Origin: Macrostomum lignano
Taxonomy: Eukaryota
Reading direction: 5' to 3'
NCBI GenBank assembly: GCA_002269645.1
Contig: NIVC01000695.1
Coordinates: forward strand, 1-64,000
Length of the DNA stretch: 64,000 nucleotides
In this document: positions 17,083 to 47,979 of the stretch, in pieces
Layout: every line of letters starts with the position of its first letter
How positions within the stretch are numbered: position 1 is the stretch's first letter
Translations under genes and position numbers: made by a program
Notes under the pieces: generated by a model
Told to the model about the DNA's origin: nothing
Database searches by the model: none
What the model saw: only the letters and a program-made list of their open reading frames with translations

Positions 17083-17471
17083 TTAAAGGATTAGTAAACC
17101 CGAGAAACGCAAAAGTTAAGACTGGTGCAAACTAGCAAAAAATTAGTAAAATATATAAACCTGCAAAATAAAAACGTTTCGGAAAGTCAGAATCAGGTGC
17201 GAAGGTAATTAATCTAAAATACTGAAACTAATACGATAATCCTAAATCCTAGGATTAACGAATTAAGAACGAATTAACGCTAGTAGTTTCAAAATTTGAT
17301 AGCAAAGTCATAATTGACCCAAGTAAAGTGAAGAGATCACGCAGTCTAGCAGTTCTGTTCACAATTAGAAGTAACCAATTAACTAGTTAGGTAGATCAGT
17401 GACTCAGGAGTCTCCCAGTCTCACTGAAATCAATAAATCATAAGAAGCGATAATTCGTAATCAGAAATCTA

Positions 17472-18480
17472 ATGGACGCTAATGACGTAGTAGAAGCTTT
17501 GGCTGAAGGCATTAGATACAGACTAGACATTAGGAAGCACATTAGGATCAAAAAGTACACGCCTAATCAAGATATTGACGTGTGGATTCAGGCTTTTGAG
17601 CAAAGGTGTATCGCAGATGAGATACCTGCAGCCGATTGGAAAAATGAACTACTATCTAATCTAGATGTCCAATCAGCGTTTGCTATTGTGACAAGGTTGA
17701 ATTTAGATCCTAATCTACCGTATGCTGAATTCAAGGATAGGCTCATCGAACGATTCACGCATGCGGGTAGTGCTCAAGAAGCTAGAGAAGAATTCCGTAG
17801 CAGATACCAATCTAAGACAGAGAGCTCTGACGACTATGCGGAGAAGCTGACAGAGTTAGCCTATAGGGCGTTTCCCCATTTAACTAATGACCAAAGACAG
17901 GAAGAAGTGGTGGAACAATTTATTAGAGGCGTTAGGATAACCCCAGAGGCTAGGGAAAAGCTACTGCTAGCACAGGCGAACACACTCCAAGACACGTCGA
18001 GTCTTGCGACGTATCGAAATGGCGTATGCCATGTCTCGCCGAGGGAGAGATCCAGCTCAGTGCAAGGCAACTGGAGGAGATGAGGCTGAGAGTAGCTTGA
18101 GGGAGTTAGTCCGCAAGCAAGGTGAGACACTAGAAAGCCAACAGAGGGTACTCCAGGAGTTGCTTCGACACCAGCAGAGTGCTGAGCAGAAGGCTAGACA
18201 GAAGCCGTACCAAGGCCAGCAACAGGGCCAAGGTCAGAAGCAGCCAGTAAAGTGCTTCAAGTGTGGGAAAGGCGGCCACATAGCTAAGCATTGTCAGCAG
18301 CAGCAGAATCAGCCGCAGTTCCCGCAGCAGCAGTTTCCACCACCACCACAGTTTATTCCGTACCAGCCGCAGTATCCGCCGCCGCAGTTTCCGCAGCAGC
18401 AGTTCCCGCAGCAGTACCAGAATAAGAATCAGGGAAACGGAGTAACCGGAAGCGTAGGGGGCAACGCTTTCCAGAAGTAG
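17472..18480 (+). pseudogene. gag: Gypsy A gag (capsid + CCHC knuckle), one frameshift near 17990
   Basis: ORFs 17472-18083 (capsid-like: WIQAFE, FRSRYQ..ES.DDYAEKL.ELA.RAF, EQFIRG) and 18004-18480 (CFKCGKGGHIAKHC). Confidence 0.88.
18432..18438 (+). promoter_or_regulatory. -1 ribosomal frameshift heptamer G GGA AAC (gag to pro-pol of Gypsy A)
   Basis: The heptamer is phased X XXY YYZ in the gag frame. The -1 frame opens after TAA 18423-18425 and runs uninterrupted into the protease (…EVVYLL). Confidence 0.8.
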
Positions 18481-18750
18481 ACAGTCAGCAGTCTGTAGCC
18501 TCGCAACCTGTAAATAGCAGCGATAGTTTTTCTGTAAATAGTGAATTGAATATGCATGCGCAACCATTTAATCAATCATTTAATCAACCAAATATTTATT
18601 CTCAGCACTTTTCACACGCACCACAGCAGCAGTCTTGTTCTAGTAAGCAGAAAATTAAACCACAAAATTTAAGCGAACCAACTAAAAAACAAAATTATGA
18701 TCCGTATATTACTGGCAGCATTCTAAATAAGGAGGTAGTTTATCTATTAG

Positions 18751-19403
18751 TGAAATATTTTAGAATGTATGTTATTGTTCTTCTTCTGGTCTCTCACTTC
18801 TATGGCTCCTGTTCTACTTCAAATATCAATGTGAGAGCCAAATAACTGAGGCGGCGGATTCAACTGACTTTTCCTGATGATGCAAACACTTGATGGTAAC
18901 TTACAGACCGTTGTATTTGATGGTCACAATCTCGAGATGTTTTCTCACAAAATATAATGTCTAAGGTGGAATTCCAAATAAGAAGCTCGTTCGATTTAAG
19001 TCACAAGGTGTTTCTAATTGTTCGGGCGAACCGAAGGTTCAGTCTATTGTAGAACGTGGATTGGGTGTTGGTTTAGCTTTAGTGAGTCAATTTATCAGTT
19101 TTAGCGTTTGGGTTGAGACCCTAACTGTGTTAATCAAAATTAGTCAAAAGGAGGTTGGCTAGGAGAAGGGCGAAGGAGAGAAAAGGCGAGGAGAGGCGGA
19201 GCGAGAGAAGGCGAGCTTCTTGCTTGGTTAACATGAGCTTTTATAGTACTTTTCAGTCTTGATCGCATTGGATGGTACATAACTGCTTTTCATTGGTTGA
19301 GGTTGGGGTCGTGTCCTCAGCTTTTGCTATTTGGAGCGCATTCATTGGTTAAAATACATTCAATCTGGATGGGAACTTTCTAGAGCCAAAATGTATCACT
19401 TCA
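18751..19403 (-). repeat. 3' LTR of element E (PPT-like GAAAAATAGAGCGAA immediately before it on the minus strand, 19404-19418)
   Basis: Direct repeat of 32849-33501. Confidence 0.95.
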
Positions 19404-20045
19404 TTCGCTCTATTTTTCGGGGAAGCGAGGCCCTCCGAGCGCATAAAAACAGAAAAGGTATAGTAGGGGGGTTAAAATTGATAAAATTGCAGAAAAGGAT
19501 AACGTATTGTATTAAACGAGAAAAGTTGTTGCAGAAAAAAATAGTGCGCAGTGAATAATGTTAGCAAAAATGTTTGAGTAAAAGGGAACCAATTTAAGCA
19601 AAGTAATATAGGTTAAAGTACAACAGCAGTCTAAATAGCTAAAGAAGGAATAGCGCAGAGGGCCTGTAGTTAGGCGAAGCTAAACTAGCTATGCAAGGAT
19701 GGAATAAAACGTAGCAAGGGTTAACCAAAAATCGATAAAATAGGTGTACAAGGCAAAACGGGGGTTTAACGACGCAAGCTTAAAATGAAAACGCGTTGAG
19801 TTAAAAGGAGGGTAATAAAAATCATTGTACAGCGAAAGTTGGGGGGGGGGGTTTAGCGAGGAACCGCGCAGCTAATAAATCATGTACACGGTAGAGGTTA
19901 AAATTTTAAATGGGGAACGAAGAACTGTAAAAATTCCAGGGACAATTGTACAGTCAAAAGGGTATATAACGCGAAACTTAAAACGGAGCAAAGGGTTAGG
20001 CGATTTGTCTTTTTTAACTGACTGTTAATAATTGAATGTTAATAA

Positions 20046-20471
20046 TCAATTGAGTTCCATTTGAGTTGCAAACATCATGAGCACGGTGAAGAATTTACGA
20101 TTCTTGCTCGGCGATCTTGCTAGGCGGTCCCAAGATGATTGGGATTTGGGCGATAGACGGTGGACAATCACCGTCGTCCTCCTAGTTGTACTAGGAGCGT
20201 TAGTGCTGCTGCTGCTGCTGTGCCAGTGCTCGGCCTGCCGCTGGTGCTGTCGGTGCTGTCGTCGCAGTTGTTGTTGCGCGGGCCCGTCTGAAACGCCGGT
20301 CGCCGCGGCAGATGCAGAAGCGCCGTCGTCAGAGTCGGCAGAAGCGGCCGTGTAAGAGCCCTGGTTGCTCTGTCGGCTCTGCCGGCGTTTGTTGAACGTT
20401 GAAACGGCCCTTTTCAGGGCCACCACTTGATGTGATGCCGAAAGTGTCAGATGAGCAGACTGTGCAGTCAT
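20046..20471 (-). CDS. Element E second accessory ORF (141 aa, low complexity, basic/Gln-rich)
   Basis: ATG-initiated, GC-rich island in an otherwise T-rich 3' region. Confidence 0.4.
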   Translation of the reverse strand: MTAQSAHLTLSASHQVVALKRAVSTFNKRRQSRQSNQGSYTAASADSDDGASASAAATGVSDGPAQQQLRRQHRQHQRQAEHWHSSSSSTNAPSTTRRTTVIVHRLSPKSQSSWDRLARSPSKNRKFFTVLMMFATQMELN

Positions 20472-20902
20472 GAAGGAACAAATGTTGTTGAGCCGTATGC
20501 TTTAGTGCTAGTTGATTGACTTAGGTGGGAGCAGCGCTCGAGGTCGAGGATTGCAGAGACCAGGCATAGCGTAGGGCGATGGCTGCGTAAATCAGGGCTG
20601 TGGCTTGAATTTGGTTGAAGCAGCGCCAGAGACAGCAATTGGCAGTGACCAGGCACAGAGCAGCAGTCGTGTAGGTCAGGGTTGGGCAGGGTTGAGCAGG
20701 GTTGAGCAGGGTTGAGCAGGCTAGCGCGTGATGACTTTTGAAAAAGCAGTTGACAGGATAACAAAGGAAAATAGCATAAGCTTTACACAAGTGAGCGCAA
20801 AAGAACGGAGGAGTAATAGGCAGAAGAACGGAAAATATTTTTTGAGTATTTTTGAACAATTTTTTGTAGTGTTTCAGCGCTCAATATTGAAGAAAAAGCG
20901 GA

Positions 20903-21859
20903 TTAAAATAGTGAGCGATGATGGTGAATCAAGTCATAAAAAAGAGCGTATGCCAGTCGAGCAAAATTAATATTAGGATCAGAAGGCGGAGAATGCTGAA
21001 TACGCTTGATGGGGAAGGTATGAAGAGCGGCATACTCTGGCAAGGTGTTAGGGTAGCCAACATGAGCATTTCGTATACGGTGAATATTGTATAAATATCG
21101 ACGAAGCGGAGGACAAGAGAAAGGGAAGATAGTATGGGCAACTACCGAGCGAGAATAAAAGTCGATAATTATAAAGGCAAAGTTTCTTGAACGCGTTGAG
21201 AGAATGAAAACAGCGTGGGTGAAGAAAAAATTGTGCGGATACAGACGATTTAGCGTGCGTATGATAGCGCTCTTAGTAGCACGAGGAAAAAACGGAGGAA
21301 AAATTTGATAAACATAAGGGGCGAGAGAATCGAAAGAGGTTAAATAATTTTGGAGCGTAGAAGTTAACTGTTGCGCCGAAAGATTAGCAGCATCATGGCG
21401 GAATTGTTGCCATGGGTAGCGCAGAGAGGAAAGCAACAGAGGCCAAGTGTCTTGGTTAAAGCGCATGCATGGTTGAGGGAGAGTAGAAGCAGAGAGTTGA
21501 AAGAAATCGTCGATAGATATATTAGGAGAAAAAAGAAAATGTAGGATTGGTACGAAGCTGCGGTTGAGAACGTCAGTCATAGGGGGAGAAAAGTTCTGTA
21601 TACGTGGTCGTGAGTGAGTACGACGCAGCACACCAAATAGACTAATTCGCAGAACGCGGAGCATCTTAGGATAAAAGCGATGGCAGCGGATAACATAAAA
21701 ACGAGAGAAGAAAGCGGAGGCCATGCGTAGCCGTTGGGGTTCACCAATAGTTTCAGAATAAAATATTGTTTCGGTGAACCAAGCAACAACGGTTGCGAGG
21801 CAAATAAGATCATGATGTAACTGTGGTCGGATATCCACTGGTTGCGGAAATGGATCCAT
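20903..21859 (-). CDS. Element E accessory ORF (318 aa from ATG 21859), unknown function
   Basis: Long open frame inside the LTR boundaries, on the sense strand, downstream of integrase. Confidence 0.6.
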   Translation of the reverse strand: MDPFPQPVDIRPQLHHDLICLATVVAWFTETIFYSETIGEPQRLRMASAFFSRFYVIRCHRFYPKMLRVLRISLFGVLRRTHSRPRIQNFSPPMTDVLNRSFVPILHFLFSPNISIDDFFQLSASTLPQPCMRFNQDTWPLLLSSLRYPWQQFRHDAANLSAQQLTSTLQNYLTSFDSLAPYVYQIFPPFFPRATKSAIIRTLNRLYPHNFFFTHAVFILSTRSRNFAFIIIDFYSRSVVAHTIFPFSCPPLRRYLYNIHRIRNAHVGYPNTLPEYAALHTFPIKRIQHSPPSDPNINFARLAYALFYDLIHHHRSLF

Positions 21860-22157
21860 AAGAGAAAGGAAAAAGGAGAAAAGCAATAGATACACAAAAT
21901 ATTGTTTTAGCGCGTGAGCTCTGCAATGTAAAGAGGGAAAAGAGAGAAATTTTTGTAGCTTTTGTTGATAAAACGGAAAATAAAAGTTCACTGTGTCAGT
22001 TCGTCAATATAGTCACGTAAAGTGTCGCAATGCAGGGAGAGAGAGCAAAATTGTTAGAAAAGAAGGAAAAAAGCAGAAGAGAAAGAAAGGAAGAGAAAGC
22101 AATATTGTCAGTCAAGGAAAAGAAAGGAGAAAAGGAATTTAGAAGATTTTTTATCAT

Positions 22158-25010
22158 TCACGACTTCTTGTTCTTCGATCTTAGGTTGTAGCCGTGCGTC
22201 TGTGGCTGACCTGGTGGCTCATCAGAGGACGTGGTTTGCAGCGCGATGGACTTGCTCAATGGCGGCCGATGGTTGTGGTGGACCTGAATGTCATCAGTTG
22301 TGAACTCAGGTAGGTGACTAGGTCCAGCGCTGAGTCCGTCTCCAGGCCATGGTTTCAGCTTGGAGGCATGTACCACGATTGGTCGTTCGCTTGGCCGGTT
22401 GACATCAGAAATCAGTGCGTTCTGATCGGAGAGCCATGCTAGTAGACGCATTGGGCCACGATAAGGATTGGAGAATTTTGTCTCCTTCGTTGCTGAGACA
22501 TCTAAATAGCATCGTGCACCGGGGCGTATGTAGCGGCTGTTGGTCTTCTTATCAGAGTTTTCAGCGCGCTGTTCAGCTGAGTTGTGCAGAAGTTACTTGG
22601 CGACTTCTCTGGCAAGCAAAATAGCTGAACAGGTCAAATTGACTGGTTTAATAACGTCCATGTATGCAGTTGTCTGGTGTTCCATGATCTGTGCGTTGGG
22701 TGGCAGGAAGTCTCGAGCGAAGAACAAGTAGAATGGTGATTCATTCATCGTTGAGTGTGCGGCGGTATTGATTGCTAGTGTCACCGCAGGTAGGAAGTCA
22801 ATCCAGAGATCTGGTTTGTCATGGACAAATGCCGTAAGAGTTTGCTTCAGTGTCTTGTGTGCGCGTTCGACGAAGTTGCTGGATGGTTGGTACACCGAGG
22901 TGTAGATCAGGTGTATTCCAAGGGCACCCATAAACTCTCGAAATTCTTGCGAGATGAATTGGGGTCCATTGTCTGAGATGATGTGTGCTGGTAGTCCTGC
23001 GAAAGCGAACACACGGTTGAAGAGGTTGTTGCAGATAGTTGCAGAAGTTGTCTCAGTTAGCGGGATAGTGAACAGGAATTTGCTAACGCCGCATTGGGCC
23101 GTGAGTATGTACTTGTAGACGTCGCGGCCGTGTGAAGCTGGTGGCAGTGGACCTACAAGGTCAATAGCCAAATGAGAGAAAACCTCGTTAAATTTGACGG
23201 CTTTGTGCAGCGGTCGTAGACGGGGTGCTGTTTTCGCTTTGTGGCAGACTTCGCAGTTGTTAACGAAATTGTAGACATCTTGTCGTAGTGTAGGCCAGTA
23301 ATAGAAGTGATTGATTTTGTCTGCTGTCTTTTGGTGACCTAGATGACCACCAAGGGCTGTCGAGTGGTTGCTTGTCAAAAGAGCTTCACGATAGCGTGTT
23401 GGTATCACGAGGCGGCTTCGTCCTTCGTCATCTTCAAAGTATAAAGTGTTTCCATCCAGAAAATAACGGGCCAGTTGTCGGCGAACATATTGTTGGTCTT
23501 TCTTGGACAGCTCGTGAGTGGGTGATTTTTCCGATAGAAGCGCTTTGATTGTAGACAGTAATGGGTCTTGATCAATGGCATCCTGCAGTCCGTTGAATGT
23601 TGACAGCGATTGTATCTGACAGACTTTGGGGATGCGTGAAAGGCAGTCCGCTACTACGTTTGATTTGCCTTTCACATAGTTGAGAGTGAAGTTGTAATCT
23701 TGTAGCGCTAGAATCCACTTCTGAAGTCGTTTTGAAATTGGCTGCTTGTCACTGAATAGACTCTTGAGTGGCTGGTGATCAGTGAAGACGTGGAACTGTT
23801 GGTAAGAAGCGTAGAGGAACACGTGTAGCTTCTTTATTGCCCAATAGATGGCGTATGCTTCGCGTTCAATCGGTGGATAGCGTCGTTCAGTTGAGCTTAG
23901 CGTCTTAGAGATGTAGGCAACCGGGCGTTGGTGGTTGCTGTCGTCTAGCTGAGAGAGTACTGCTCCAATGGCGGTATCCGAGGCATCAGTGTGCAGGAAG
24001 TACGGTTTTCGCGGATTTGGATGAACAAGTAGTATATCCGTAGAGAGAAGTTGTTTCAGCTTTTCAAAGGCTGCTTGGGCGGCGTTCGTCCAGACGAATT
24101 TGTTAGGCTTCGAAGTATTTTTGATGATACTCAGAAGTGGTTGTACTACTCGTGAGTAGCCAGCAATGTGCGTTCGGTAGAAATTTGCAAGTCCAAGAAA
24201 AGATTGTAGTTGTTTAACCGTTTGAGGCACAGGAAAGGTTTTGATTTTCTCGATAAGGCTGGGGGCTGGTCTAATGCCTTGAGCAGAAACAACAAATCCA
24301 AGATATTGTACCTCTGTTTTAGCAAAGATGCATTTTCGTAGTGAAATTCGCAATCCATGATGTCGTAACTTTTGGAAGAAGCGTTCGATTTCTTTGAGCA
24401 TGCCGGTGAAGTCTTCGGCGATGAGCATGACGTCATCCAAGTAGGCAATCTGATTTGGAGAGTCAGCTGTTAACAATGCTACAAGACGGCACATTAAGCT
24501 AGGACTGGACTTGAGTCCTTGAGGTAGTCGATTGAATTCCCAAAGTAGGCCGTTGGGTGCAATGAACGCAGTGTATTTTGTGCTTTCTGGATCGATCCGA
24601 ACTTGGTAGAAAGCATCTGCTAGGTCACAGAGTGTGTACAGTTTAGCGTTCTTTAATCGATGTAGCAAATCCGGAATCTTCGGAGGTCGGATGCTGGGAG
24701 CGCGAATTAGCTTGTTCAGCTTTCGGTAATCTGTCACGAGTCTTAGTTGTCGGCGACCTTGAGCGTCGAGCGTCTTCTTTTCCACGAGAAGACATGGACT
24801 TGAGTATTCAGATTCACTCGGACTGATGATTCCTTTTTGACGGAAGTTTTCGATGAGCTCATCAAACCGTTCTTGTAGTCCATGAGCGATTGGATAGGGT
24901 CTGGACGTGACTGGCTCAGAGTGTGGGTGTAGATGCAGGTGAGCCGTGTATTGGGTAGAGCAACCCATGTCGGTTGGCAGTAGTGCCAAGACGTCACGGT
25001 ACTTGTTCAT
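22158..25010 (-). CDS. pol: Element E RT-RNaseH-integrase. Frame break to the protease ORF at about 25030 and an in-frame TAA at 22593-22595 before the GPY/F tail
   Basis: YLDD, LHTDASD, YPPIEREA, GHLG..C..C, IDLVGP/SDNG. Reading through TAA gives KFSNPYRGPM...VVHASKLK up to 22158. Confidence 0.93.
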
Positions 25011-25026
25011 TAGAGTAACTAATTGT

Positions 25027-28000
25027 TCACTCTGCTCGGTTGAGGTGCTGGTTGGCTTGTTTGAGTTGAGTACGGATCATGTCAGTCGTAGGTACTTCTT
25101 GTTGCAGCGTGCGGAGACTGTTGATTTGAGCTGCTGGGCGCACGATGTTGTAGTCAGACATGTTGGCTAGATTTCCAATGACTTGTTGAGGATGCAAGGT
25201 TTGCGTTGTCAGCGACGGGTTGGCAATTTCCACAGTGATAGTTTGTCCGTCCGGGTTGACAGAAACAAGGCAAGTTGGTATCATCAACTGGTGTTTCTGG
25301 ATCGTGTGGTCCTTAGGGACGAACAGGACAGGAATCGTTGGCTCATGTCGAGAAGAGAGTTTCAGCGTGACTTGGTGCTTTGTCTGTGGTGGTAACTCTA
25401 GCTTGTTTTGCATCACCGCAGAGGTTTCTTGCAACTGTTGGATGGAGTTGAGCATCGCAAATTGCTCATTGCCAAGCTTAGCTGTCGCTTTTGAGTAGTC
25501 AAATTGTAGTGGTATTCCTAGTGACTTAAAGGTTTCTACTCCTAAGAGCAAATCATAGTCAGCGTCGGGGGTGTCAAGCACAAAGGCCGATATCTTGTGG
25601 TTGCGTCCATCGATTTCGAGATCGAAAGTGGCCTTTTTGTTGAGGTTTAGTTGTTGTCCTCCTGCACAAATGGCGTTCATATTGGTGTCTTGTAGTGGTA
25701 CTCGAAGCTTCTTGGCGAATGCCGGTGAGATGCAGGAGATCGAGGCGCCGCTGTCAATGAGGGCGGTGCATCTGTGTCGAGTATGCGGTGTGTTGCGGCA
25801 CCACAGGTTGATCATAGTTGCTGTTGTTAGATGCTTCAAAACAAAGGCGTATGAGTAGTTTGCTGGCCATTTTGGAACTTTAGGTTCTGGCGGTGGTCTC
25901 CGTGGTGGCGGAAGGGTGGCACGAAGTTCAATCGTTTCGATGGGTGCCGAGGGTGTTGGCGCTTGTCTCGGTGGTATCAGTTGCTGTTGTTGGGAGTAGT
26001 CGTTTCGTGATTCCACTCGAGTTGGAGTTCGTTGTTGCCGCAGCACTTGTATAGTGTGCGTTCTGCCGTAACGGATGGTGCTGGCAACGCATAGTCGGCC
26101 AAGATTGCACACGAAGATAATAACGGCAATGTAGACAATAACAGCTGCTGTTAATACGAACTTTTCTTGATAGTTTGCGACTAGTCGATCCCAGTTGAAT
26201 ATCGACGAAGACCATAGATTGAGGAGAGCTAGTTTTGAGTCCAGGAATGCACTGTCAGCATGTGCTGTTCTATGTCGTGTTCGATTCGGAAGTTTGAAAA
26301 CCGTAATCAGAAAATCACGAGTTTGCATGAACTGGTGCATTAGGTCGGTCACCGTTATCGGACTACGAAGTGAAGTATAATTGATATCTCCCATAGGTTT
26401 GAAGATGCTTTCGGAGACTGAAGTTTGCAAATCGGACAACCGATAGTTTTCATCGGATCTGACATTAGCAGTTGTGGGTTCAAACCTCGAAAAATTTAGT
26501 GTGGTCTTGAATAGCATCGATTGTTTAGGCAGGTAGTAGTACGGGAAGGCGTCGCATGAGATTAGAGCTGGAGTAGCTGTGGAGACAATACGAGTCGTTG
26601 TGTCCAAAAATCCAAGAACAGTATAATTTTGTAGGCGGAATTCCAGTGGGGGACGCGTGAAGCATTGGTTCGTCTTATACTTTGGTTGGACAAAGCGAAA
26701 TTGATGTAGAGGTTTGCACTGGTAGACGAAGAGATATCCAGCAATGGATCTAGCTCGCAAGAAAGGATCATTTAATAAGAGTCGACCAGCGAGCGTTGGT
26801 TGTGTGTAGTATAACTGTCGGTTGTACTTGAGATTAGTTGCGTACATCATGCATTGAGTAGTTGCAAGCTGCCTCTGTACTTGGAGAAGGTCTTTTCGAG
26901 CTTTACTAGCAGCTCCTTGTAGTTGTCCAGCAAGAAGTTCAGCGGATGCGAACGTTGATGAAAGTTGCGCAGTAGAGTTGCCTGAAGGGGCTGCGATGGT
27001 TTTGTCATCTGTGCTTCGCTTGTTGCGTGGTAGTAGTAGGAGATCCGGTTGACCACCTTGTGGTTCGTGATATGGAACTGCTAGATTCGTATGAATAGAA
27101 GCCAGTTGTGGATCTGTTGTTGTCGCTGGTGAGTTTGTCGTGAAGGTTGAGGTTGCAGACTTTGCTGGTGCACTGGTTGTGCTGCTAGAGGTTGAGGTTG
27201 TTGGCGGTAAAGTGGTGGTGGTACTAGGTTGTATCGTCACTTTTGTAGTCGTCGTAGTTGAATCTGCTGTCGTTGTTGCTGCTGAGGTTGTAGCATTGGT
27301 GGTTGTTGAAGTTGTCGGTGTTACGGTTGTTGTAGGTATTGCTGTCGTTGTAGTCGGTGGCATTGTCGTCGTAGCTGGTGGTGTTGTCATTGTAGTCGGT
27401 GGTGTTGTCGTTGTAGCTGGTGGTGTTGTCGTTGTAGCTGGTGGTGTTGTCGTTGTAGCTGGTGGTGTTGTCGTTGTCAAAATTGTAGTTGTTGGTGGTG
27501 ATTTTGTAGTAGTTAGTATCGTAGTTGTTGGCGTCATTGTTGTAGAAGTGCTTGACGTCGGTGGATGATCAGGTCGTTCTTGTCGTAAAGGTTGCGGCGG
27601 TAGGAATTGTCGTGACTGTGTTGTCGTAGTGGAAGGATGTTGAGTCGTCGATTGCTGAACTGGTAATATAGTTGGTGGCGTTGGTAGTATGGCTGGTGGT
27701 GAACGACGTTTTTGTCTCGAAGAAGTGGTTTCTTCGCTAATTTGAGGTTTTGGAGTAGCTTCTTCTAATGGGCTTCGTAAGGTGGCGAGAAATTCTGCTT
27801 CTTTGTTGTCGAGGATGTCTACGTATAGACCTTGTGTTGAAAGGTACAACGTCTTACGGACGCCAGTGCAGGTGAGAGTGTGAGTCGACGGCACTGGGTT
27901 GAAGGTTAGTCCCAATGTTTGATCATTAGTTAAGAACAAGCCGGAGTTTAAGTTGCCTTCAAGAGTACGAAATGGTTTTAGAGGACAATCAGCGAGCGGT

Positions 28001-28860
28001 GGAGGTGTCAAAATGAGATTTAGATGTCTTGGTCCTTTTACGTCAATTTGGTAGATTGCTTCAGTTTCCAAAGGATCCCAGGGGGATGTTAGTATCGGCA
28101 AAGGTAGGTTGAAAGCTCGCATTTCTTGTGCAGTTGTTTTAATTGTACAAAATTTGTCGGCGAGTTTGCAGTTGTTCATTGGGAAGGACAAATATTCCAT
28201 TTTTTGATCTGCTGTTGAGTAGGCTGGGATTCCGGTAATCACTGTTGTTACTATTTGTTCTGAATTGGAACCGGGAGTGCAACGCACAGCATTTTGCGTG
28301 TTGAATGTCGATTGCAGGCGTTGGATAGACTGAGTTGACGCAGTCTTTAACACTAATGATCCATCAGGCGATAGCTTTGTTCGTGCCCAGTTTTCACAAT
28401 CAGCTTGAGTGACTGGTTGCGGTTCCAACTCTACCAGGGCGGATGTCCAGGTTCTTATCACCGCCTTATCACATCTGATAGTGATTTTCTCGCGGAAACA
28501 GACAGTCATAACCAGAGAACTGGTTTCCACGTTCGTTGTGTAAAGTTCCAGTTTCAACGGGAGTGTCGGCGTTGTTTGGTGTTTGAGCTGTTCACAACGG
28601 ATCTCATGTGGTATCGTGAAAATTCGTGGGATCTGGTTGTACGGACAGACCATTGGTGTGTCAATGAAGCCCTCGTGGGATTGTCTCTCGATCGACGGTG
28701 GAGTTGACGTCGTTACCGGAGTAGCGTTGGCTAGTGCGAGGAGTGAAGTTGCTAGGCACAGGAGAAAAAGTGCCAGTAGTGATCGGCGAATTCCAACGGA
28801 AGCTTTCACGGTTTTCTCGCGGTTTTTGTTGCTGGTCGGTGGAGTGTAGGCGTTAGTCAA
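25027..28860 (-). CDS. env: Element E envelope-protease fusion ORF: signal peptide, class III (gB-like) glycoprotein with mucin insert, TM, Pro-rich tail, aspartic protease
   Basis: One 1277-aa open frame containing: hydrophobic LLALFLLCLATSLLALANA; Cys-patterned ectodomain; RQKRR and RNKR sites; Thr-rich region; TM FVLTAAVIVYIAVIIFVCNL; ALIDSGAS...DLLLG protease motifs. Confidence 0.85.
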   Translation of the reverse strand: MTNAYTPPTSNKNREKTVKASVGIRRSLLALFLLCLATSLLALANATPVTTSTPPSIERQSHEGFIDTPMVCPYNQIPRIFTIPHEIRCEQLKHQTTPTLPLKLELYTTNVETSSLVMTVCFREKITIRCDKAVIRTWTSALVELEPQPVTQADCENWARTKLSPDGSLVLKTASTQSIQRLQSTFNTQNAVRCTPGSNSEQIVTTVITGIPAYSTADQKMEYLSFPMNNCKLADKFCTIKTTAQEMRAFNLPLPILTSPWDPLETEAIYQIDVKGPRHLNLILTPPPLADCPLKPFRTLEGNLNSGLFLTNDQTLGLTFNPVPSTHTLTCTGVRKTLYLSTQGLYVDILDNKEAEFLATLRSPLEEATPKPQISEETTSSRQKRRSPPAILPTPPTILPVQQSTTQHPSTTTTQSRQFLPPQPLRQERPDHPPTSSTSTTMTPTTTILTTTKSPPTTTILTTTTPPATTTTPPATTTTPPATTTTPPTTMTTPPATTTMPPTTTTAIPTTTVTPTTSTTTNATTSAATTTADSTTTTTKVTIQPSTTTTLPPTTSTSSSTTSAPAKSATSTFTTNSPATTTDPQLASIHTNLAVPYHEPQGGQPDLLLLPRNKRSTDDKTIAAPSGNSTAQLSSTFASAELLAGQLQGAASKARKDLLQVQRQLATTQCMMYATNLKYNRQLYYTQPTLAGRLLLNDPFLRARSIAGYLFVYQCKPLHQFRFVQPKYKTNQCFTRPPLEFRLQNYTVLGFLDTTTRIVSTATPALISCDAFPYYYLPKQSMLFKTTLNFSRFEPTTANVRSDENYRLSDLQTSVSESIFKPMGDINYTSLRSPITVTDLMHQFMQTRDFLITVFKLPNRTRHRTAHADSAFLDSKLALLNLWSSSIFNWDRLVANYQEKFVLTAAVIVYIAVIIFVCNLGRLCVASTIRYGRTHTIQVLRQQRTPTRVESRNDYSQQQQLIPPRQAPTPSAPIETIELRATLPPPRRPPPEPKVPKWPANYSYAFVLKHLTTATMINLWCRNTPHTRHRCTALIDSGASISCISPAFAKKLRVPLQDTNMNAICAGGQQLNLNKKATFDLEIDGRNHKISAFVLDTPDADYDLLLGVETFKSLGIPLQFDYSKATAKLGNEQFAMLNSIQQLQETSAVMQNKLELPPQTKHQVTLKLSSRHEPTIPVLFVPKDHTIQKHQLMIPTCLVSVNPDGQTITVEIANPSLTTQTLHPQQVIGNLANMSDYNIVRPAAQINSLRTLQQEVPTTDMIRTQLKQANQHLNRAE

Positions 28861-30625
28861 CCGTACAAAGGCGAATAGAGTTGATAGTCGCAGCGGCAGT
28901 AGTCGGTTTTTTGAGTAAAGATTTCAGCTGCTTAGCGTCTCCAGAGTAGCGAATTTCGTTTCCAAAAGTCGGTGGGCGTTCATCAACTGTAGCAATGTGC
29001 ATCAGTTGGGCAGACTCGGGAGCGTCGTGAGTCGTCCATCCAATCTGCGGCTGTTGATTCCATCCTGGGTGGGACGTTTCAAGGTCCTGAGCAGTGATGG
29101 CGCGGATCGGTGGATATTGTTGTTGCGCAAATCTCGGAGGTTGTCGTTGATTGTTGGCGCCGTTGTATCGAGGCGGATAGCGTTGCTGAGGCCGGTTTCC
29201 ATAGTCTTGACGGGGTGGAAATCGTGATTGTTGTGTCGCCGGTGGACCGTAGCCTTGTGTACGTTGGGCTCGTAGTCGGCACTGGTTAATAGAGTGTCCT
29301 GGTTTCCGGCAATAGTTACAGGTCAATCGTGGCGGTCCCTGCTGGTAACGATCCCGCGGGGCATCAGAGCCGTATTGAGCTGTGTTCCTTCGATCGCTTG
29401 AGTTAGGTCGGAAGGGACGAGGTTGTTGGTCATTCCTTCGACGACAGTCGGCGGCATAGTGTCCAGGTCGACCGCAATGATAACAAGTGGGCTTCTGTTG
29501 TATATTAGCGATAGGTGGCTTGGTTTGTGTTTGCAGGGAGGCAACCACCTGCTGATTGGCTTCCTTCGTCGTTTTTTCTAAGGTAGTTAAACGCTCTGTG
29601 AGAGCTTTCAAGTCAGTGCCATCAGAGTCCATGGTGGAGTCGCGGATTTGTTCGGCGCGGATGGCCTTGTTGATTAGCGTACTTTCCGTGGTGATATTTT
29701 GCTTCAAGAGTTCTCGTTTGATGTAGGGTAGAGCATTGTTAATAGTCGTAGCCATCAGGGTAGCAAGGAAGTCTCGGTTGCGCTGGTCGATGACAGCTTG
29801 ATTCGCGGGTGGTGTTTCCGGACCGGCACCTTCCGGAAATTCTTCCGGTATTTCCGGCATAGCTGACCTGAGCTTTCGACGAATGTCGGTGAAATAAGAC
29901 AGGAACGGTTCGCCGTACTGTTGTTTCCGGGTTGTTGCATTATGCAACGTTAGAGCCGAGCCAATGGTTACTTCCCGAAGGCGTTGAGATAGTGCCTCAA
30001 TGGTGGCTGGATAAGAGGCTTGGACTGCGGCAGAGAGGCGACTGTATTCGAGTTTAAGAAGGTCATTCAGTAGTCGCGGGAAGAGCCGAATCTTTGCGTT
30101 CTCCGATAGTCCAAAGGAGCGTGTGATCAAGTCGAACTCTTCAGTGAAGGAACGGAAGTCATGCATTTGGTCGATTCCTTTCAGGGATTGACGAATTTCA
30201 GCAAGAGCAGTAGCTGAGACGGGATGGTTTGATTGCAATTGCAGACTGCGGTTCATAACATCAGTAAGTTCACGGACAGCATTTGTGGCTGCAGCATCAA
30301 CATGGGGAGCGCCGTCCGGATCAGCCATGTCTAGAGTAGATTCTTCAGCAATAGCGTTTGGGGCTTGTTGAACTGTTTCGTCCGCGTCTGTTAGAATGGA
30401 ACTGGGTGCTGGCGAGTGTGCACGGTTGTGTTCAAAATGATCCGCAAGAGGATTATTAAACTCAACGTTATCTGGTACAAACAGGTTAGGTACTGGTGAA
30501 CTATTTCGTGGGGGCTGTTCACCTACTTGGCGGTCAGAAGTTTCTAAATTTTGTTCAGGAGGTCTGTTAAGATTTGAGCTTTGAAAAACTGGTCCGGAAC
30601 GTAAATCTCGGACAGGTGTGGTCAT
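28853..30625 (-). CDS. gag: Element E gag (capsid + two CCHC knuckles)
   Basis: First ATG at 30625 (MTTPVRDLRS). Capsid-like QQYGEPFLSYFTDIRRK. Knuckles CYHCGRPGHYAADC and CNYCRKPGHSINQC. Confidence 0.92.
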   Translation of the reverse strand: MTTPVRDLRSGPVFQSSNLNRPPEQNLETSDRQVGEQPPRNSSPVPNLFVPDNVEFNNPLADHFEHNRAHSPAPSSILTDADETVQQAPNAIAEESTLDMADPDGAPHVDAAATNAVRELTDVMNRSLQLQSNHPVSATALAEIRQSLKGIDQMHDFRSFTEEFDLITRSFGLSENAKIRLFPRLLNDLLKLEYSRLSAAVQASYPATIEALSQRLREVTIGSALTLHNATTRKQQYGEPFLSYFTDIRRKLRSAMPEIPEEFPEGAGPETPPANQAVIDQRNRDFLATLMATTINNALPYIKRELLKQNITTESTLINKAIRAEQIRDSTMDSDGTDLKALTERLTTLEKTTKEANQQVVASLQTQTKPPIANIQQKPTCYHCGRPGHYAADCRRRNDQQPRPFRPNSSDRRNTAQYGSDAPRDRYQQGPPRLTCNYCRKPGHSINQCRLRAQRTQGYGPPATQQSRFPPRQDYGNRPQQRYPPRYNGANNQRQPPRFAQQQYPPIRAITAQDLETSHPGWNQQPQIGWTTHDAPESAQLMHIATVDERPPTFGNEIRYSGDAKQLKSLLKKPTTAAATINSIRLCTVD

Positions 30626-32833
30626 TAACAAGAATTCAATCAATAATTTCAAGGCAACGATAGCACAAAAATGTAACTGATAGCAAAGTAAAGAGAGAGT
30701 GTCAAGTTCAAAGTGAGCAAACGGCAATGGCTTTCAGGGTTGCGGTTGGCGGACTGGCTGGGGAAGGGAGAAAAAGAGAGACTGTGTGATTTTTTGAACT
30801 GTGATCTGCAACGAGCTTTGAAAATCGAAGTAATTTTGAATTAAACTGCCTTTTGATCGGTTCTGAAACTTTGAATTTTGAAATTTTGAACTGGGTGAAA
30901 TTTTGAATTGAACTGCCTTTTTGATCGGTTCTGAAACTTTTATTGAAACTGAATTTGATAAAGGAGCTCCTGAATGTTGGACTAGACGGACATCAGTGGT
31001 GGCCAATAAAATCGAATTTGTATCATTGAAATAGGCAGTTTTCTTTTTCTTGAAGTCGGCAGTTTATTCTTTTTTTTGAAGTCGGCAGTTTTCTTCTGAG
31101 AATTCGTTCTGGCTTTTGAATTTCTAATCTGAATTTTTGAGCTATCTGACGAGTTTCAGCTAGGGGGTTGATTTCATAATTTTAAGCAAACGTAGAGTAA
31201 TGTTTTTGTAGTTTTGTAAATTTGCTATTTTTAATTTTTGAAAATTTTATAATTTTTATTGATCGGACTGATCATTTTGCAACTTTAACATGATAAGAGC
31301 AGTACGGATTATACGAAATGGACTATAAGCAATGGTATTATTTTTTGTGTTTTCAAGTTTTATTATTTTTTGGTGATCGAATGACCATTTTTAAGCTTTG
31401 TCATAAGCGAAGGGGATATGGGGTTACCAAAAAGCTCGCGCCACTGGCAGTAGAGGGATGGGAGAAAATTTGAGGTTATTTTGGTCTTAATCCATCATGC
31501 GAAACGGGGGGGGGAGCTAGGGACAGATCCCAGGGGAGGTCGGTTGTCAGTGATTGCAGAGAAAACATCGCTGGGCCGGTGATGAAGTGGCAGGAGGGAG
31601 CTGGCCTGGACAGTTTGGTTAGGAAAAATATTTTTTGTGGGAGATGAAGTTGAGTGATGGTTTTAATCAAGAAAAGAGGTCTCTCTGGGAGGTTGAGTAG
31701 GCACACAAAGTCTGATGTGGGCAGTTTGTTTAAGATGAATATTTATTGGAGGAAACTGGAGTTGATTAAACACACAAGAAATTCCCAGCATCCTGAATGA
31801 TCCATAGAAGGCAACTGCCAGAATCAGCAATCCGAAAAAAAAACTTGGGTCGATAAGGATTTGATGGATGGGGCTCGTGGGGTTTGCAAACAGTGAGTTT
31901 GGAGTGTTTAATCAAGAAAAATAATGGAAGGCTAGGCAAGCGGTCTACGAAAATAAGAAAAGTTTTCCGGATGAAGCACGCAGGTTCGGCAAACAATTGG
32001 TTGGGACTTTAATCAAGGAAAATGATGAATGGTCAGGCAAGCAGCCTGTCGGATAAGCGAAAAAAAATTTTTTTGTTGACAGCAAGAAATTGGTGGCTCC
32101 AGAGTTTGATTAATATTTGCTGTAGTGACTTTGTTTGAATAGCTCGTCAGGTTTTTTGCGTTTTCGTCTTTCTTTCGGGCGCTTAACGGCGCAGAGAATC
32201 TGAGATAAGCCAGTTTTCTAGATGTGGCCACACACTGGGAAAAACCGAGGAGGAAATCGAATGGCTCAGTCGCTTTGGAGAGTTTCAAATATATATGAAG
32301 AAATCCAGAGCAGACTTTGCTATTCTGTGGAAAAGCAGTGAAGGAAGAGGCGTCCAACATTAAATAAACTTGAACAATTGATGATGCCGCGGTCTTTGAA
32401 AAATCGAAGCTTTGAAGCTTGAACAATTGAGGATCCGAATAACTGAATTGAATTTCTGCATTGAAGCTTTGAGGCTTGAGAATAAGAACTCGATATCAGA
32501 CGTTCGACGACGTTTCTTGAATTGAATTGAAGTTGAAATTGTTCCGGAACGATAATAAATTGACTTTCATGGATCCTTTGAATTTGAAACAACTTGAATC
32601 AGGTCTCAGTGCACTGGACAAAACTTAAAACCGATTTGAATTCTGAATTTGAATTTGAGAGCTCGTGATTTACGATTCATTCTTCGAATTTGTATTACTG
32701 ACAGTCTCGAATGCGCAAAATGGAGGGGAGGGGAAGCCAGTCCAACCGTTCGCACCCATCAGCCACGCCTATAGCTGTCTACCCCATGCAGGGCATGGCG
32801 GCTATTGTGGTGAAAAGCATCGGAGGAAAAGTA

Positions 32834-32847
32834 CGGTCAGGGAACCA
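32834..32847 (-). promoter_or_regulatory. PBS of element E (tRNA-Glu CUC-like)
   Basis: TGGTTCCCTGACCG on the minus strand, 1 nt after the LTR, is complementary to a tRNA-Glu 3' end (CGGUCAGGGAACCA). Confidence 0.85.
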
Positions 32848-32848
32848 G

Positions 32849-33501
32849 TGAAATATTTTAGAATGTATGTTATTGTTCTTCTTCTGGTCTCTCACTTCTA
32901 TGGCTCCTGTTCTACTTCAAATATCAATGTGAGAGCCAAATAACTGAGGCGGCGGATTCAACTGACTTTTCCTGATGATGCAAACACTTGATGGTAACTT
33001 ACAGACCGTTGTATTTGATGGTCACAATCTCGAGATGTTTTCTCACAAAATATAATGTCTAAGGTGGAATTCCAAATAAGAAGCTCGTTCGATTTAAGTC
33101 ACAAGGTGTTTCTAATTGTTCGGGCGAACCGAAGGTTCAGTCTATTGTAGAACGTGGATTGGGTGTTGGTTTAGCTTTAGTGAGTCAATTTATCAGTTTT
33201 AGCGTTTGGGTTGAGACCCTAACTGTGTTAATCAAAATTAGTCAAAAGGAGGTTGGCTAGGAGAAGGGCGAAGGAGAGAAAAGGCGAGGAGAGGCGGAGC
33301 GAGAGAAGGCGAGCTTCTTGCTTGGTTAACATGAGCTTTTATAGTACTTTTCAGTCTTGATCGCATTGGATGGTACATAACTGCTTTTCATTGGTTGAGG
33401 TTGGGGTCGTGTCCTCAGCTTTTGCTATTTGGAGCGCATTCATTGGTTAAAATACATTCAATCTGGATGGGAACTTTCTAGAGCCAAAATGTATCACTTC
33501 A
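32849..33501 (-). repeat. 5' LTR of element E
   Basis: Direct repeat of 18751-19403. Confidence 0.95.
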
Positions 33502-33505
33502 TTAG

Positions 33506-36500
33506 ACACTGGCAGCAATAGGAACATTCTAGGACGTGAAACCTGGAAACATCTGTTCACTGGCAAGAATAGTCACTTAATTAAGCAGTGGAACAATAGA
33601 ATCGTGTCATTCACGGAAGAGCCGATTCCAATTAAAGGTTCCGTAGTTATTAAAGCAACATTCGGTGATTTCGAAGAAGAAATCGAGTTTCTCTTATGTG
33701 ACGCAGAAGTAGACAATGTGATAGGCGTGACGTTTGTCCAACAATATTGTAATGCTATTGACTTTGAAGCAGGAATGCTAACTATGAAGCAGGGAACTAG
33801 AATTCCACTACGTTCGACGAGAGCTAAGCCTCAGGTTAAGAGAATCTATGTTGCAGAAAAGACGACAGTTCCAGCTAATAGTTCAGGGTTAGTCAAGGTG
33901 AGATTAGCAACAGGTAGTGAATCCAATTTCGGAGTGCCGTCAGTTGTTGAGCCGCTCAGATCAGGATTAAGAACTAGAGCAGCGAAGGTAACTGTAGTAC
34001 CAAGTCTAGTAACTTTGAGGCAAGGAGAAGCTTATTTAGAGGTCAATAACACCAGCTCACAGGAAGCTAAAGTTCCAGCATCAACACTAGTAGGGATGGC
34101 TAAACTGCTTTTAGCTAGCGAATTAAACTATCTTAAAGATCAACCAGAGAAAGAGCAGTTATGCCAAAATAGAGACACGCAGTTTTGCGAAAACATCAGA
34201 CAGGTGCAAGACAAATCAGAAGATTGGATTAGTGAGATTAACATAGGAAATGAACTGACTCAGGAACAGAGACAAAATGTGATCGAGGTCGTCAAGGAAC
34301 ATTCAGCAGCTTTCTCGCAGCACGAGTTAGACTTAGGCCGAACGCATTTAGTCACTCATGAGATTATCTTGAAGGACAACAACCCAGTTCAGATACCAGC
34401 TAGAAAAATTCCACCTCATTGGATTAAGGAGGTAGATGAGCAGTTAGATCTCATGTTGGCTAGAGGCATCATTAGGCCTAGTTACTCGCAGTACTCGACT
34501 CCATTAGTCATAGTACCTAAAAAAGACGGTTCGCTGAGATTAGTTAACGACTATCGAGCGCTAAATAACAAATCGGAGTACTTTCCGTATCCAAAAACTA
34601 ATATCAATGAAACATTTTCATGTCTCCATGGAGCCAGTCAATTCTCTACGTTAGATCTATTTTCGGTATATTATCAGATAGCTCTTAGGGAGGAGGATAA
34701 GTGCAAAACTAGCTTTCCAACTTTACATCGAGGCTCGTTTGAGTACGAAGTTTTGCCAATGGGATTGCAAGGAGCTCCAGGAACTTTTCAAAGGTGCATG
34801 AACTTAGTTCTTAAAGACATTGCGCAAAAGTTCGCCATAGCTTACTTAGATGATGTGATAGTTTATAGTGCAGACTTTGAATCTCACTTAGAACACCTGA
34901 AGGAAGTGCTCAAAAGACTAATCCAAGCTAATATGAAACTGAAAGCTAAGAAATGTCACCTTTTCAAATCAGAACTGCAATATTTAGGACACGTCATTGG
35001 CAAATCAGGAATTAAGAGAGACGCGTCAAAGTTAGGAGCGATTAGGAACTGGCCGAAACCTAAATCTGTGACAGAGCTTCGAAGTTTTCTCGGACTCTGT
35101 AATTATTATCGAAAGTTCGTTAGAGATTTTGCCGAGGTAGCAGCACCACTCTGTGAGCTAACGAAGAAGAACATCAAATGTATCCAGGACAAATGGACCA
35201 GGATTCATGATGAATGCTTCGAGCTGTTGAAGGAACGGATGTGTTCCGAAGAAGTGCTTGCTTACCCAGAGTTCAATACAGACCCCCAAGTTTATTTTGT
35301 GTTAGACACTGATGCATCAGATGTCAGAATTGGGGCGGTCTTAAATCAAGTACAGAGCGACGGAGTTGAGAAACCGATCGCGTATTATAGTCGGAAAATG
35401 AGGCAGTCAGAAAGTAGATATCCGATTACGAGGAAGGAGCTTCTAGCGATTGTTGACTCGCTGAAGTACTTCAGGTTTTACCTCGTAGGGAAACGTTTTA
35501 AGGTGTGCACTGATCACAATGCCCTAACCTGGTTGCTTCGCCAGACCGAGCAGACAGGCATTTTAGGTCGTTGGATCGAGAGACTTAGCGAATTTGATTT
35601 TGAGATTGAGCATAGAAGTGGCCCTAAGCATGTGAATGCTGATGCTCTATCCAGGATCCCGGATCCTCAACAGGATGAGTCATCCCCATATGCCAGGTCG
35701 CTTAGCTGTAGGGCAACTGTGAACACAGACCCAGCATCAGCTGTTACTGTGAGCTCAGGCAATTCCGCGCAAGCCGAAACCTGTAGTCTGCACAGTGGAG
35801 TTACGTCATGCTGTTCGCCGCAGAATATGGCGCCGAACCGACACAATACTCCGAGTTTTAGTAGCAGGTTGCTAAGCAAAAGGCAAGAACAGGAGCCTAA
35901 GGAAAGGACAGGTGTTTGCAATGCACTGCTGAGTGATTACCTTCGTAGCCCAGTGCGTCGCGAAAATTTGGTCGCAGCTCAGCTAGCCGACCCCGCACTA
36001 AGCTATGTCAGGAATCTGATTGAATCTGACTTGCCGAAACCGAACTTTCAAGAAAGACTAGAATTGTCTCATGAGATTAGAAATCTGCTAGGTTACTTTG
36101 AACTCTTCAGGATAGAAGACGGTGTTCTCAGAATAGACTTAAATTTAGGGCGGACCGAATCTAAAGTGGTGTTGCCCAAGTCTTTGGATGGTGAAGTTTT
36201 TCACGAATTCCACGATTCACCGTTAGCAGGTCATCTAGGAAGAGATAAAACTTATCAGCGAGTTAAAGAAAGATTTTGGAGAGTAGGATTAGCTACAGCA
36301 GTCGAAAAGTACGTCGCCAAGTGCAAATCCTGTTTAGAAAGTAAATCAAGGAAGCGATGCAAGGCACCAGTGCAGAATTTTCCTATTGTCGAACCGTTTT
36401 CACGCCTTCACATTGATTTGATAGGTCCGATTAGTCAGACTAGCAAATCTGGTAACAAATATGTCTTGTCAGTTATTGACAACACTAGCAAATTTCCATT

Positions 36501-40680: not shown

Positions 40681-40688
40681 AGCAATAA

Positions 40689-47974: not shown

Positions 47975-47979
47975 ACTAA

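Follow-up and report, generated by a model that had tools for sequence, protein, structure and literature searches.

A single Gag-Env-Pol reading frame in a multicopy Ty3/Gypsy family of the flatworm Macrostomum lignano

The env-protease fusion in the analyzed stretch of Macrostomum lignano DNA (64,000 nucleotides, hereafter the window) is carried by a 14.75-kb Ty3/Gypsy element on the minus strand (18751-33501). In its architecture, the family of this element almost certainly has a single polyprotein of about 2,800 aa as its coding unit, in the order Gag-Env-PR-RT-RH-IN, as deduced from sister copies that are in frame and from related families with single frames. The window element itself inserted recently and is a defective member of this env-bearing family.

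Anatomy of the element

The hallmarks of Ty3/Gypsy elements are present, namely TG...CA LTRs, a target-site duplication, a tRNA primer site and a polypurine tract. The pol order PR-RT-RH-IN and a CCHC Gag were identified by Pfam search. The knuckle type of Gag and the Pfam set fit Ty3/Gypsy; BEL/Pao elements have the same domain order, and the RT trees contained no named reference elements. The features are as follows.

33502-33505, plus strand: right copy of the target-site duplication, TTAG
32849-33501, minus strand: 5' LTR, 653 bp, TG...CA, identical to 18751-19403
32834-32847, minus strand: primer-binding site whose 14 nt pair with the 3' end of host tRNA-Glu
30626-32833, minus strand: 5' leader of about 2.2 kb, from the sequence
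28853-30625, minus strand: gag with its ATG at 30625 and a pair of CCHC knuckles (zf-CCHC), frame break at its end in this copy
28723-28779, minus strand: internal signal-peptide-like hydrophobic segment (hydropathy 2.29), basic residues before and small residues after
26158-28722, minus strand: Env ectodomain, class III (gB/nyamivirus-like) fusogen by profile, Pfam and Foldseek, with dN/dS of 0.11-0.13 against L017
27706-27717, minus strand: first furin-type motif, RQKR
27028-27705, minus strand: mucin-like Thr/Pro-rich insert, about 225 aa long and flanked by the two furin motifs, pLDDT <50
27016-27027, minus strand: second furin-type motif, RNKR
26101-26157, minus strand: Env transmembrane (TM) helix, hydropathy 2.73
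25798-26100, minus strand: cytosolic tail and Pro-rich linker to the protease, with a PSAP late-domain-like motif at 25942-25953
25525-25776, minus strand: aspartic protease, Pfam PF13975/PF13650 (PF13975 E=9e-8), DSG at 25747-25755
24291-24776, minus strand: reverse transcriptase core (YLDD, Pfam), copy-specific frame break upstream near 25030-25090
23694-24092, minus strand: RNase H (Pfam)
22884-23405, minus strand: integrase zinc finger and core (Pfam)
22158-22592, minus strand: integrase C-terminal tail, severed in this copy by the in-frame stop at 22593-22595
20903-21859, minus strand: accessory ORF3, 318 aa, without Pfam family, in this family only
20077-20355, plus strand: antisense accessory ORF of 92 aa, its single hydrophobic helix preceding a Cys-rich stretch
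19404-19418, minus strand: polypurine tract, 13/15 purines
18751-19403, minus strand: 3' LTR, 653 bp
18747-18750, plus strand: left copy of the 4-bp target-site duplication, TTAG

A minus-strand frame of 1,298 aa (25027-28923) runs from the signal-like segment (aa 49-67) through the ectodomain, the TM helix (aa 923-941) and the linker into the protease, exactly as the initial annotation had described it, including the position of DSG. Pfam search places gag upstream and RT-RH-IN downstream of this frame, and env lies between gag and protease, as had been claimed, both in the window copy and in its sister copies. Instead of the single frame break reported before, the window copy carries three lesions: a gag/env break at about 28850-28930, a PR/RT break at about 25030-25090, and the stop in the integrase tail. 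Both breaks are +1 shifts. The integrase core and C-terminal tail share one frame in most other copies. No ATG was found upstream of the signal segment within the env frame of the window. Scattered small indels are common in these copies within the assembly.

One frame across the family

Seventeen other copies span the 5-kb gag-env-PR-RT stretch with 93-98% identity, and they share the env-PR stretch with several divergent families, so the fusion is family-wide, a point which the initial annotation had put forward for checking. The gag-env frame is continuous in 18/24 scorable loci and the post-PR frame (PR-RT) is open in 18/21. The PR/RT break, which the initial annotation had taken for what looks like a small indel, is specific to this copy, judging by these in-frame sister loci. 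The result is divided for the TM-PR frame, where a stop in other copies had been named as evidence against the fusion: 12 of the 22 scorable loci are open, and the other 10 are out of frame or stopped, some of these breaks being shared by two copies. At one locus a frame of 2,086 aa runs from gag into RT. Single frames of 2,370-2,866 aa were found in 9 of 14 loci from related families, which were chosen for long frames, and the Gag-Env-Pol layout is also displayed by database proteins P0002 (2,852 aa) and P0025 (2,486 aa).

Since both breaks of the window copy shift by +1, and Ty1/Ty3 elements are known to use +1 shifting (PMC5009743), programmed frameshifts might be thought to separate gag, env-pro and pol at these two sites. 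This explanation is largely refuted and has very little probability left, because the window spacing at both junctions is seen in no other locus, while 18/24 and 18/21 loci are in frame, and because the in-frame PR/RT form was recovered in contigs of all four sequencing runs examined, two of which may be RNA. The form of the window at PR/RT is absent from every assembled contig examined; these contigs drop rare variants, and the three lesions may be genuine mutations or errors of the assembly. Six joints are listed among the contigs, none of them GT-AG, and they give no evidence on splicing. An assembly chimera, which the initial annotation had raised for the junction, or an RNA-virus glycoprotein gene that landed by chance in one gag-pol copy, can be dismissed as refuted. 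The many small indels would speak for an assembly problem, but the fusion is carried by 17 further full copies and several divergent families, the TM-to-protease stretch is tiled by gap-free contigs from independent runs (X1, X3, X6), and the same layout occurs in nematode and metagenome proteins.

Each of the 10 other frames compared has a signal-like segment similar to that of the window. In these frames the distance back to the nearest Met is not conserved and ranges over 15-319 aa, the distance of 15 aa belonging to one sister family (L037/38/39/44). In the env frame of the window no ATG precedes the segment, and the gag-env frame is mostly continuous, so the signal lies within a longer frame and does not open an Env-Pol gene of its own. 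The Env-Pol polyprotein of the initial annotation is retained insofar as Pol is plausibly a cytosolic tail of Env; Gag, however, lies in the same reading frame, which makes the product Gag-Env-Pol and removes the proposal that Pol reaches particles via Env rather than Gag-Pol. The single frame implies a Gag:Env:Pol ratio of 1:1:1, which is unusual.

Env is a class III fusogen

Purifying selection acts on Env, which is a fusogen of class III (gB/nyamivirus-like). A profile of alignment A1 matched herpesvirus gB with E=1e-16, and PF24664 was matched by 14 of its 20 members; the Env of the window itself matched no Pfam family. A homologue search with A1 accepted none of 7,999 candidates, not even the members of A1, and so lacked sensitivity. 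The best Foldseek matches of the Env model were Nyavirus G (1.1e-19) and HSV gB (3.4e-14), for a model of middling quality (mean pLDDT 62.8, pTM 0.44) and with low TM-scores, at most 0.30 when query-normalised. Values of dN/dS against L017 are 0.11 for envN, 0.13 for envC, 0.07 for TM and tail, 0.02 for PR and 0.05 for RT-RH; dS against other families is mostly saturated. The mucin-like insert has a dN/dS of 0.38 and is missing from more distant Macrostomum families. An Atlas search with Env returned leads at 0.84-0.87 only.

The insert is unusual, and transmission outside Drosophila is described as unknown (PMC13524379), which would suit an Env that is no longer fusogenic and works for an intracellular retrotransposon solely as a scaffold at the membrane or a tag for vesicle sorting. 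We regard this as improbable, given that both halves of the ectodomain are under purifying selection, that five cysteines/residues do not vary among 20 sequences sharing 13-45% identity, and that the gB-like fold is retained by profile and by Foldseek.

Late-domain-like motifs in the Env tail

ESCRT late-domain-like motifs (PTAP/PSAP, YPxL, PPxY) were found in the pre-protease Env tail of all 11 Macrostomum frames tested. These frames are not independent, since they come from about 7 families belonging to 3 lineages. P[ST]AP occurs in 9/11 tails, YPx[LI] in 9/11, and at least one motif in 11/11, against a single P[ST]AP in about 23,100 residues elsewhere. PSAP is kept in 20 of the 22 scorable loci of the window's family. 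The motifs lie on what is, from hydropathy, the predicted cytosolic side of the TM helix.

A library of 40 rows yielded 28 tails after the removal of 11 (no TM, no room, or a tail <40 aa) and of one cluster duplicate; the protease regex used for it missed some proteases, e.g. that of P0018. P[ST]AP is present in 6 of these tails against 0.29 expected by shuffling, and 19/28 have no motif at all. The tails of the four named nematode proteins (P0010, P0012, P0020, P0061) are likewise without any late-domain-like motif. In the metagenome relatives, Gag-Env ends at CAA-TGA-C just after the motifs in 11/20 loci, representing 5 sequence types and thus not independent, and PR-RT-RH-IN follows in frame. 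Loci L082 (frameshifted, no motif), L083, L088, L089 and L090 are uninformative.

In HIV the late domains sit just before the protease, as in the window family. Judged from the sequences, the tail motifs are putative ESCRT recruiters, a role that we hold slightly more probable than its absence. PTAP, PPXY and YPXL act as late domains and are shared with retroviral Gag p6 (PMC8952333), whereas in the window family they sit on the Env tail behind a transmembrane helix. We found no published account of late domains or readthrough in GAG-ENV-POL elements, and Sacco 2022 may discuss processing.

Accessory ORFs

ORF3 is open in 14 of 31 matches, with dN/dS of 0.21-0.59. Pfam search gave no family for ORF3 or for the integrase tail. 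By eye, ORF3 resembles a dead Ulp1-type protease, a candidate likeness. The antisense ORF is open in 17 of 22 matches, with 72-81% identity apart from the self-match and dN/dS of 0.10-0.30.

Proposed mechanism

The data are probably best explained by a single Gag-Env-Pol polyprotein that would be threaded through the membrane, with a tail that recruits the budding machinery and carries Pol. Topology and processing would likely be as follows. Gag would be synthesised in the cytosol, and the internal signal would then thread Env into the ER, where signal peptidase would cut behind the signal and leave Gag tethered by the signal anchor. The TM helix would halt transfer, so that tail, PR, RT, RH and IN remain cytosolic and tied to Env. 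Two furin cuts may follow, possibly freeing the mucin-like insert. Env trimers would gather Gag and Pol on one membrane patch, the PSAP/YPxL tail would recruit ESCRT for budding, and crowding would lead to PR dimerisation and release of Gag and the enzymes. The gB-like fusogen would finally carry the particle into another cell. The net result would be an env lodged within gag, ahead of a late-domain peptide that resembles p6.

In an amended form of the model in the initial annotation, the 1:1:1 ratio would pose no problem: the frame would be continuous, but most of the Env-Pol, or of Gag alone, would be made from a spliced RNA, or from one with an internal start, that sets the stoichiometry. 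A leader of 2.2 kb, the Met 15 aa ahead of the signal segment in L037/38/39/44, and the in-frame stop by which relatives limit Pol are consistent with such an RNA. It is nevertheless unlikely, as the upstream Met is not conserved among the 10 frames, the env frame of the window lacks an ATG ahead of the signal, and 18/24 loci have retained the gag-env frame. The single membrane-threaded chain is preferred.

More tentatively, with chances a little short of even, the GAG-ENV-POL order may have originated when env landed inside gag ahead of the p6-like peptide. This would have produced one membrane-threaded chain in which the Env tail, not Gag, recruits ESCRT, with lineage-specific dosing of Pol: no stop in Macrostomum, and in the metagenome clade a leaky TGA behind either the tail or the protease. 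If true, the assembly plan of these enveloped retroelements would be unlike the Gag-driven one of retroviruses, and the window family would add to it a mucin shield cut out by furin and, from the antisense strand, a conserved TM/Cys-rich microprotein.

Comparison with known systems

The initial annotation presented the arrangement as an undescribed system. This novelty falls by one of the grounds for refutation that the annotation itself had named, an arrangement already catalogued, since GAG-ENV-POL errantiviruses with gB-type env have been published from Nematoda, Bryozoa and Platyhelminthes, including one M. lignano entry (Chary and Hayashi, eLife 2026, PMC13524379), where Sacco et al. 2022 (doi 10.1099/jgv.0.001739) are credited for the nematode case with env ahead of pol. 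The mechanism remains useful. In its available text, PMC13524379 treats GAG-ENV-POL as an ORF order, and the available main text makes no mention of polyprotein, in-frame fusion, single ORF, late domains, ESCRT, cytoplasmic tail or budding. Here, several multicopy families carry GAG-ENV-POL as one polyprotein, in a model flatworm that is tractable by transgenesis. The candidate budding signal in the Env tail and the readthrough-type stop in relatives make assembly and intercellular movement of non-insect enveloped retrotransposons testable.

The window family shares with these errantiviruses the Ty3/Gypsy pol, env before pol, LTRs, a tRNA primer site, multiple copies and a flatworm host (PMC13524379). 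Their ectodomains are flanked by two TM segments, and in our family env between gag and pol likewise encodes a class III ectodomain between a signal/TM and a TM segment. Multicopy, LTR-flanked open frames are found in the family and its relatives, while the window copy itself has its three lesions. From the available part of the published set, the window family is set apart by its tRNA-Glu primer site, 653-bp LTRs, mucin-like insert and two accessory ORFs. Platyhelminthes_Rhabditophora_Mlig_errantivirus_2 (PMC13524379 supplement) has the same species, order and env type but a different primer site and an LTR of about 864 rather than 653 bp. Its primer-site 12-mer was found in 7/68 loci (L034, 35, 37, 38, 39, 43, 44), of families whose RT groups with that of the window. 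Identity between these families and the window family is about 40% in RT-RH and 27-30% in Env-PR.

The nematode endogenous retroviruses (NERVs) of Sacco et al. reportedly have a continuous gag-env-pro-pol frame, as the window family does, and a nyamivirus-like glycoprotein, which fits the Nyavirus G match of our Env. They are also said to carry a Upf1-like helicase as an accessory gene, absent from the window family; the Anisakis protein P0012 has AAA_11. The host here is a flatworm rather than a nematode. In the RT tree the Macrostomum sequences make up a clade of their own; the single named nematode RT in that tree (P0061) does not group with support.

The available text of a study on M. lignano LTR elements (Mob DNA 2025, PMC12801592) makes no mention of an envelope, and its supplements may list the family. 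Anakin, with a chuvirus glycoprotein (PMC12440569), is also an LTR element whose glycoprotein is of class III and of the type known from negative-strand RNA viruses; it belongs to BEL/Pao, whereas the window family belongs to Ty3/Gypsy.

Structure of the element

The element lies on the minus strand at 18751-33501 and is organized as follows.

Features of the Ty3/Gypsy retroelement (PR, protease; RT, reverse transcriptase; RH, RNase H; IN, integrase)
18751-19403 and 32849-33501: LTR pair, each 653 bp, identical
28853-30733, minus strand: gag
25027-28923, minus strand: env-PR frame, 1,298 aa
aa 49-67 of the 1,298-aa frame: hydrophobic segment
aa 403 and 633 of the same frame: furin-type motifs
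aa 923-941 of the same frame: transmembrane segment (TM)
25747-25755, in the same frame: protease DSG
22593-25076, minus strand: RT-RH-IN

The hydrophobic segment, TM and DSG-bearing protease of the middle frame had been correctly recognized in the initial annotation. The whole element extends beyond the interval marked there. Outside it lie the LTRs, the target-site duplication TTAG, a polypurine tract, and a primer site in which 14 nt match tRNA-Glu of the host. The closest proteins (99% and 47% identity) both carry the label Macrostomum lignano. The integrase tail of the window copy contains an in-frame stop where most copies read through.

An outer Gypsy element (17454-18750 and 33502-36942, plus strand) hosts the insertion and is split at its protease motif, with gag and the start of PR on the left side and the remaining pol on the right. 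Segment 16174-16403 matches 38996-39224 (98.7%) and 16391-17070 matches 51627-52306 (99.7%); these are probably the LTR pair of the outer element, its 3' LTR interrupted by later insertions totalling about 12 kb. Two tandem elements (40150-43565 and 47462-50852; 81% identical, 7.3 kb apart) look LINE-like by eye, and two ORFs at 52912-54048 (plus strand) resemble by eye a split mariner-type transposase.

A family-specific sense ORF of 318 aa (20903-21859, minus strand), open in 14 of 31 matches, had no Pfam match. The antisense ORF of 92 aa (20077-20355, plus strand), which encodes a single hydrophobic helix and a stretch rich in Cys, is open in 17 of 22 matches; its dN/dS is 0.10-0.30, and it stays open in copies that share 72-81% identity and have diverged strongly at synonymous sites. 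Its product presumably resembles small palmitoylated viral membrane proteins.

A single Gag-Env-Pol frame

A 5-kb gag-env-PR-RT query yielded 86 genome matches, 18 of them full-length, namely the window copy and 17 others at 93-98%. Frames were scored in 27 loci, window included and some partial. The env-protease fusion proposed initially is family-wide; TM and PR are in frame in 12 of 22 scorable loci. The separate Env-Pol product proposed with it is contradicted by the other junctions and by related families: gag and env are in frame in 18/24 scorable loci and the post-PR-RT junction in 18/21. The spacing of the window copy at the two outer junctions (gag-env, PR-RT) is unique among the 27 loci. 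Frame breaks are scattered over many sites among the copies, some common to two copies, and one locus has an open frame of 2,086 aa reaching from gag to within RT. In contigs of public runs, the PR/RT in-frame form is present (four runs), TM to protease is tiled gap-free, and one contig crosses gag/env with gaps relative to the window. Additional families at 53-56% and 27-30% identity were found with the Env-PR protein as query. Among 14 loci fetched from related families, picked for long frames, nine have single frames of 2,370-2,866 aa in which the CCHC, TM, protease, YxDD and integrase motifs are all present, and the database protein P0002 (2,852 aa) has the same layout. The Macrostomum families form one clade in small RT-RH trees built without named reference elements (support 0.958 and 0.998). 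The window element is a defective copy of a GAG-ENV-POL family in which the feature is real, and the product is predicted from the reading frames to be one polyprotein, not Env-Pol.

No ATG was found ahead of the signal in the env frame of the window. Spliced or internally started RNA supplying the products remains a rival to the single polyprotein, because a stop-free frame offers no ready route to enough Gag. A joint at 24185-28535, skipping env to mid-RT in two runs guessed to be RNA, has non-GT-AG ends and a short side of only 30 letters, and is possibly an internally deleted copy.

Env as a class III fusogen

The window Env alone matched no Pfam family. Monjiviricetes_fusion was matched by 14 of the 20 sequences in Env alignment A1, the profile of which matches herpesvirus gB (E=1e-16). 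The AlphaFold model (mean pLDDT 62.8) displays a long central helix, with residues 351-587 disordered; its best structural matches are HSV gB (3.4e-14) and a Nyavirus glycoprotein (1.1e-19), with low TM-scores. From these domain and profile matches and the predicted fold, Env is assigned as a class III fusogen. Relative to L017, a copy at 93%, dN/dS is 0.11 and 0.13 in the ectodomain halves, 0.07 in TM plus tail, 0.02 in PR, 0.05 in RT-RH and 0.38 in the Thr-rich insert between the furin motifs, which is present in the window and loci L031 and L033 and missing from other families.

Relatives in other genomes and metagenomes

A full HMMER scan gave 56 matches. Several of the proteins found, including some under the labels Pristionchus entomophagus and Ditylenchus destructor, have the fusion domain followed by protease; a protease motif follows TM in 15 of 28 scorable library tails, and P0025 (2,486 aa) carries gag, env, RT, RH and IN in a single chain. 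P0012, an Anisakis env-PR protein, has a helicase domain (AAA_11), and the env-bearing P0036 a NADAR domain. The Env-like proteins P0007, P0015 and P0033, under bacterial genome-bin labels, are probably from mis-binned eukaryotic retroelement contigs.

Distant Env relatives, used as queries against metagenomes, gave 20 loci. Eleven of them, representing five sequence types, have a Gag-Env frame that closes within a tail bearing the late-domain-like motifs described below, 58-87 scored residues in and always at CAA-TGA-C, with PR-RT-RH-IN downstream in unchanged frame. Four others have Env fused to PR, with TGA-CTA after PR in three. A lone in-frame TGA-C stop, placed behind either the Env tail or the protease, characterizes the metagenome gag-env-pol loci L071-L081, L084, L085 and L087; these elements form a supported RT clade (0.997), separate from the Macrostomum families. 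TGA-C is a leaky stop context. Since only one TGA occurs in such long frames, the sequences point to putative readthrough rather than a changed code. A literature search on readthrough in such elements found no paper.

Late-domain-like motifs and a proposed mechanism

The TM-to-protease linker is 95-120 aa long in the Macrostomum frames. P[ST]AP and YPx[LI] each occur in 9 of 11 linkers and PPxY in 4, with at least one of the three in all 11. The shuffle probability for P[ST]AP is 0.01-0.07 per linker, and outside linkers it was seen once in about 23,100 residues. In the family to which the window element belongs, 20 of the 22 loci that could be scored retain PSAP. Six of the 28 library tails contain P[ST]AP (expected 0.29); none of the three motifs was found in 19 of the 28, among them the tails of the four named nematode proteins.

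Most likely, a single chain would be threaded twice through the ER membrane, with Gag remaining on the cytosolic side, the internal signal cut, Env lumenal, and the Env tail and Pol cytosolic. Env trimers would collect Gag and Pol, the tail would bring in ESCRT, the protease would mature the particle, and the gB-like Env would mediate entry. We infer all these cell-biological steps, beside the observed sequence layout, conservation and fold, and budding through the Env tail is offered tentatively, as a model slightly more apt to fail than to hold.

Comparison with known elements

A continuous gag-env-pro-pol frame was reportedly already described by Sacco et al. 2022. According to the errantivirus survey, errantiviruses of Nematoda, Bryozoa and Platyhelminthes have gB-type env only, in the order GAG-ENV-POL, and the nematode case is credited to Sacco et al. 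2022 (PMC13524379). With this survey and the nematode precedent the arrangement, initially taken as undescribed, is therefore known. In the excerpts of its table, M. lignano is represented by a single element, with a copy number of 16. We found its primer-site motif in 7 of 68 loci, all of distant families, and the window's family is thus a sister to the tabulated entry and apparently uncatalogued. The main text of that survey makes no mention of late domain, ESCRT, cytoplasmic tail, budding, polyprotein or fused, and a literature search on late domains in such elements found no paper. PTAP-, PPXY- and YPXL-type motifs are late domains of retroviral Gag according to an excerpt of PMC8952333. 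Whereas retroviruses carry them in Gag, the Macrostomum families have the same motifs in the Env tail, between TM and protease.
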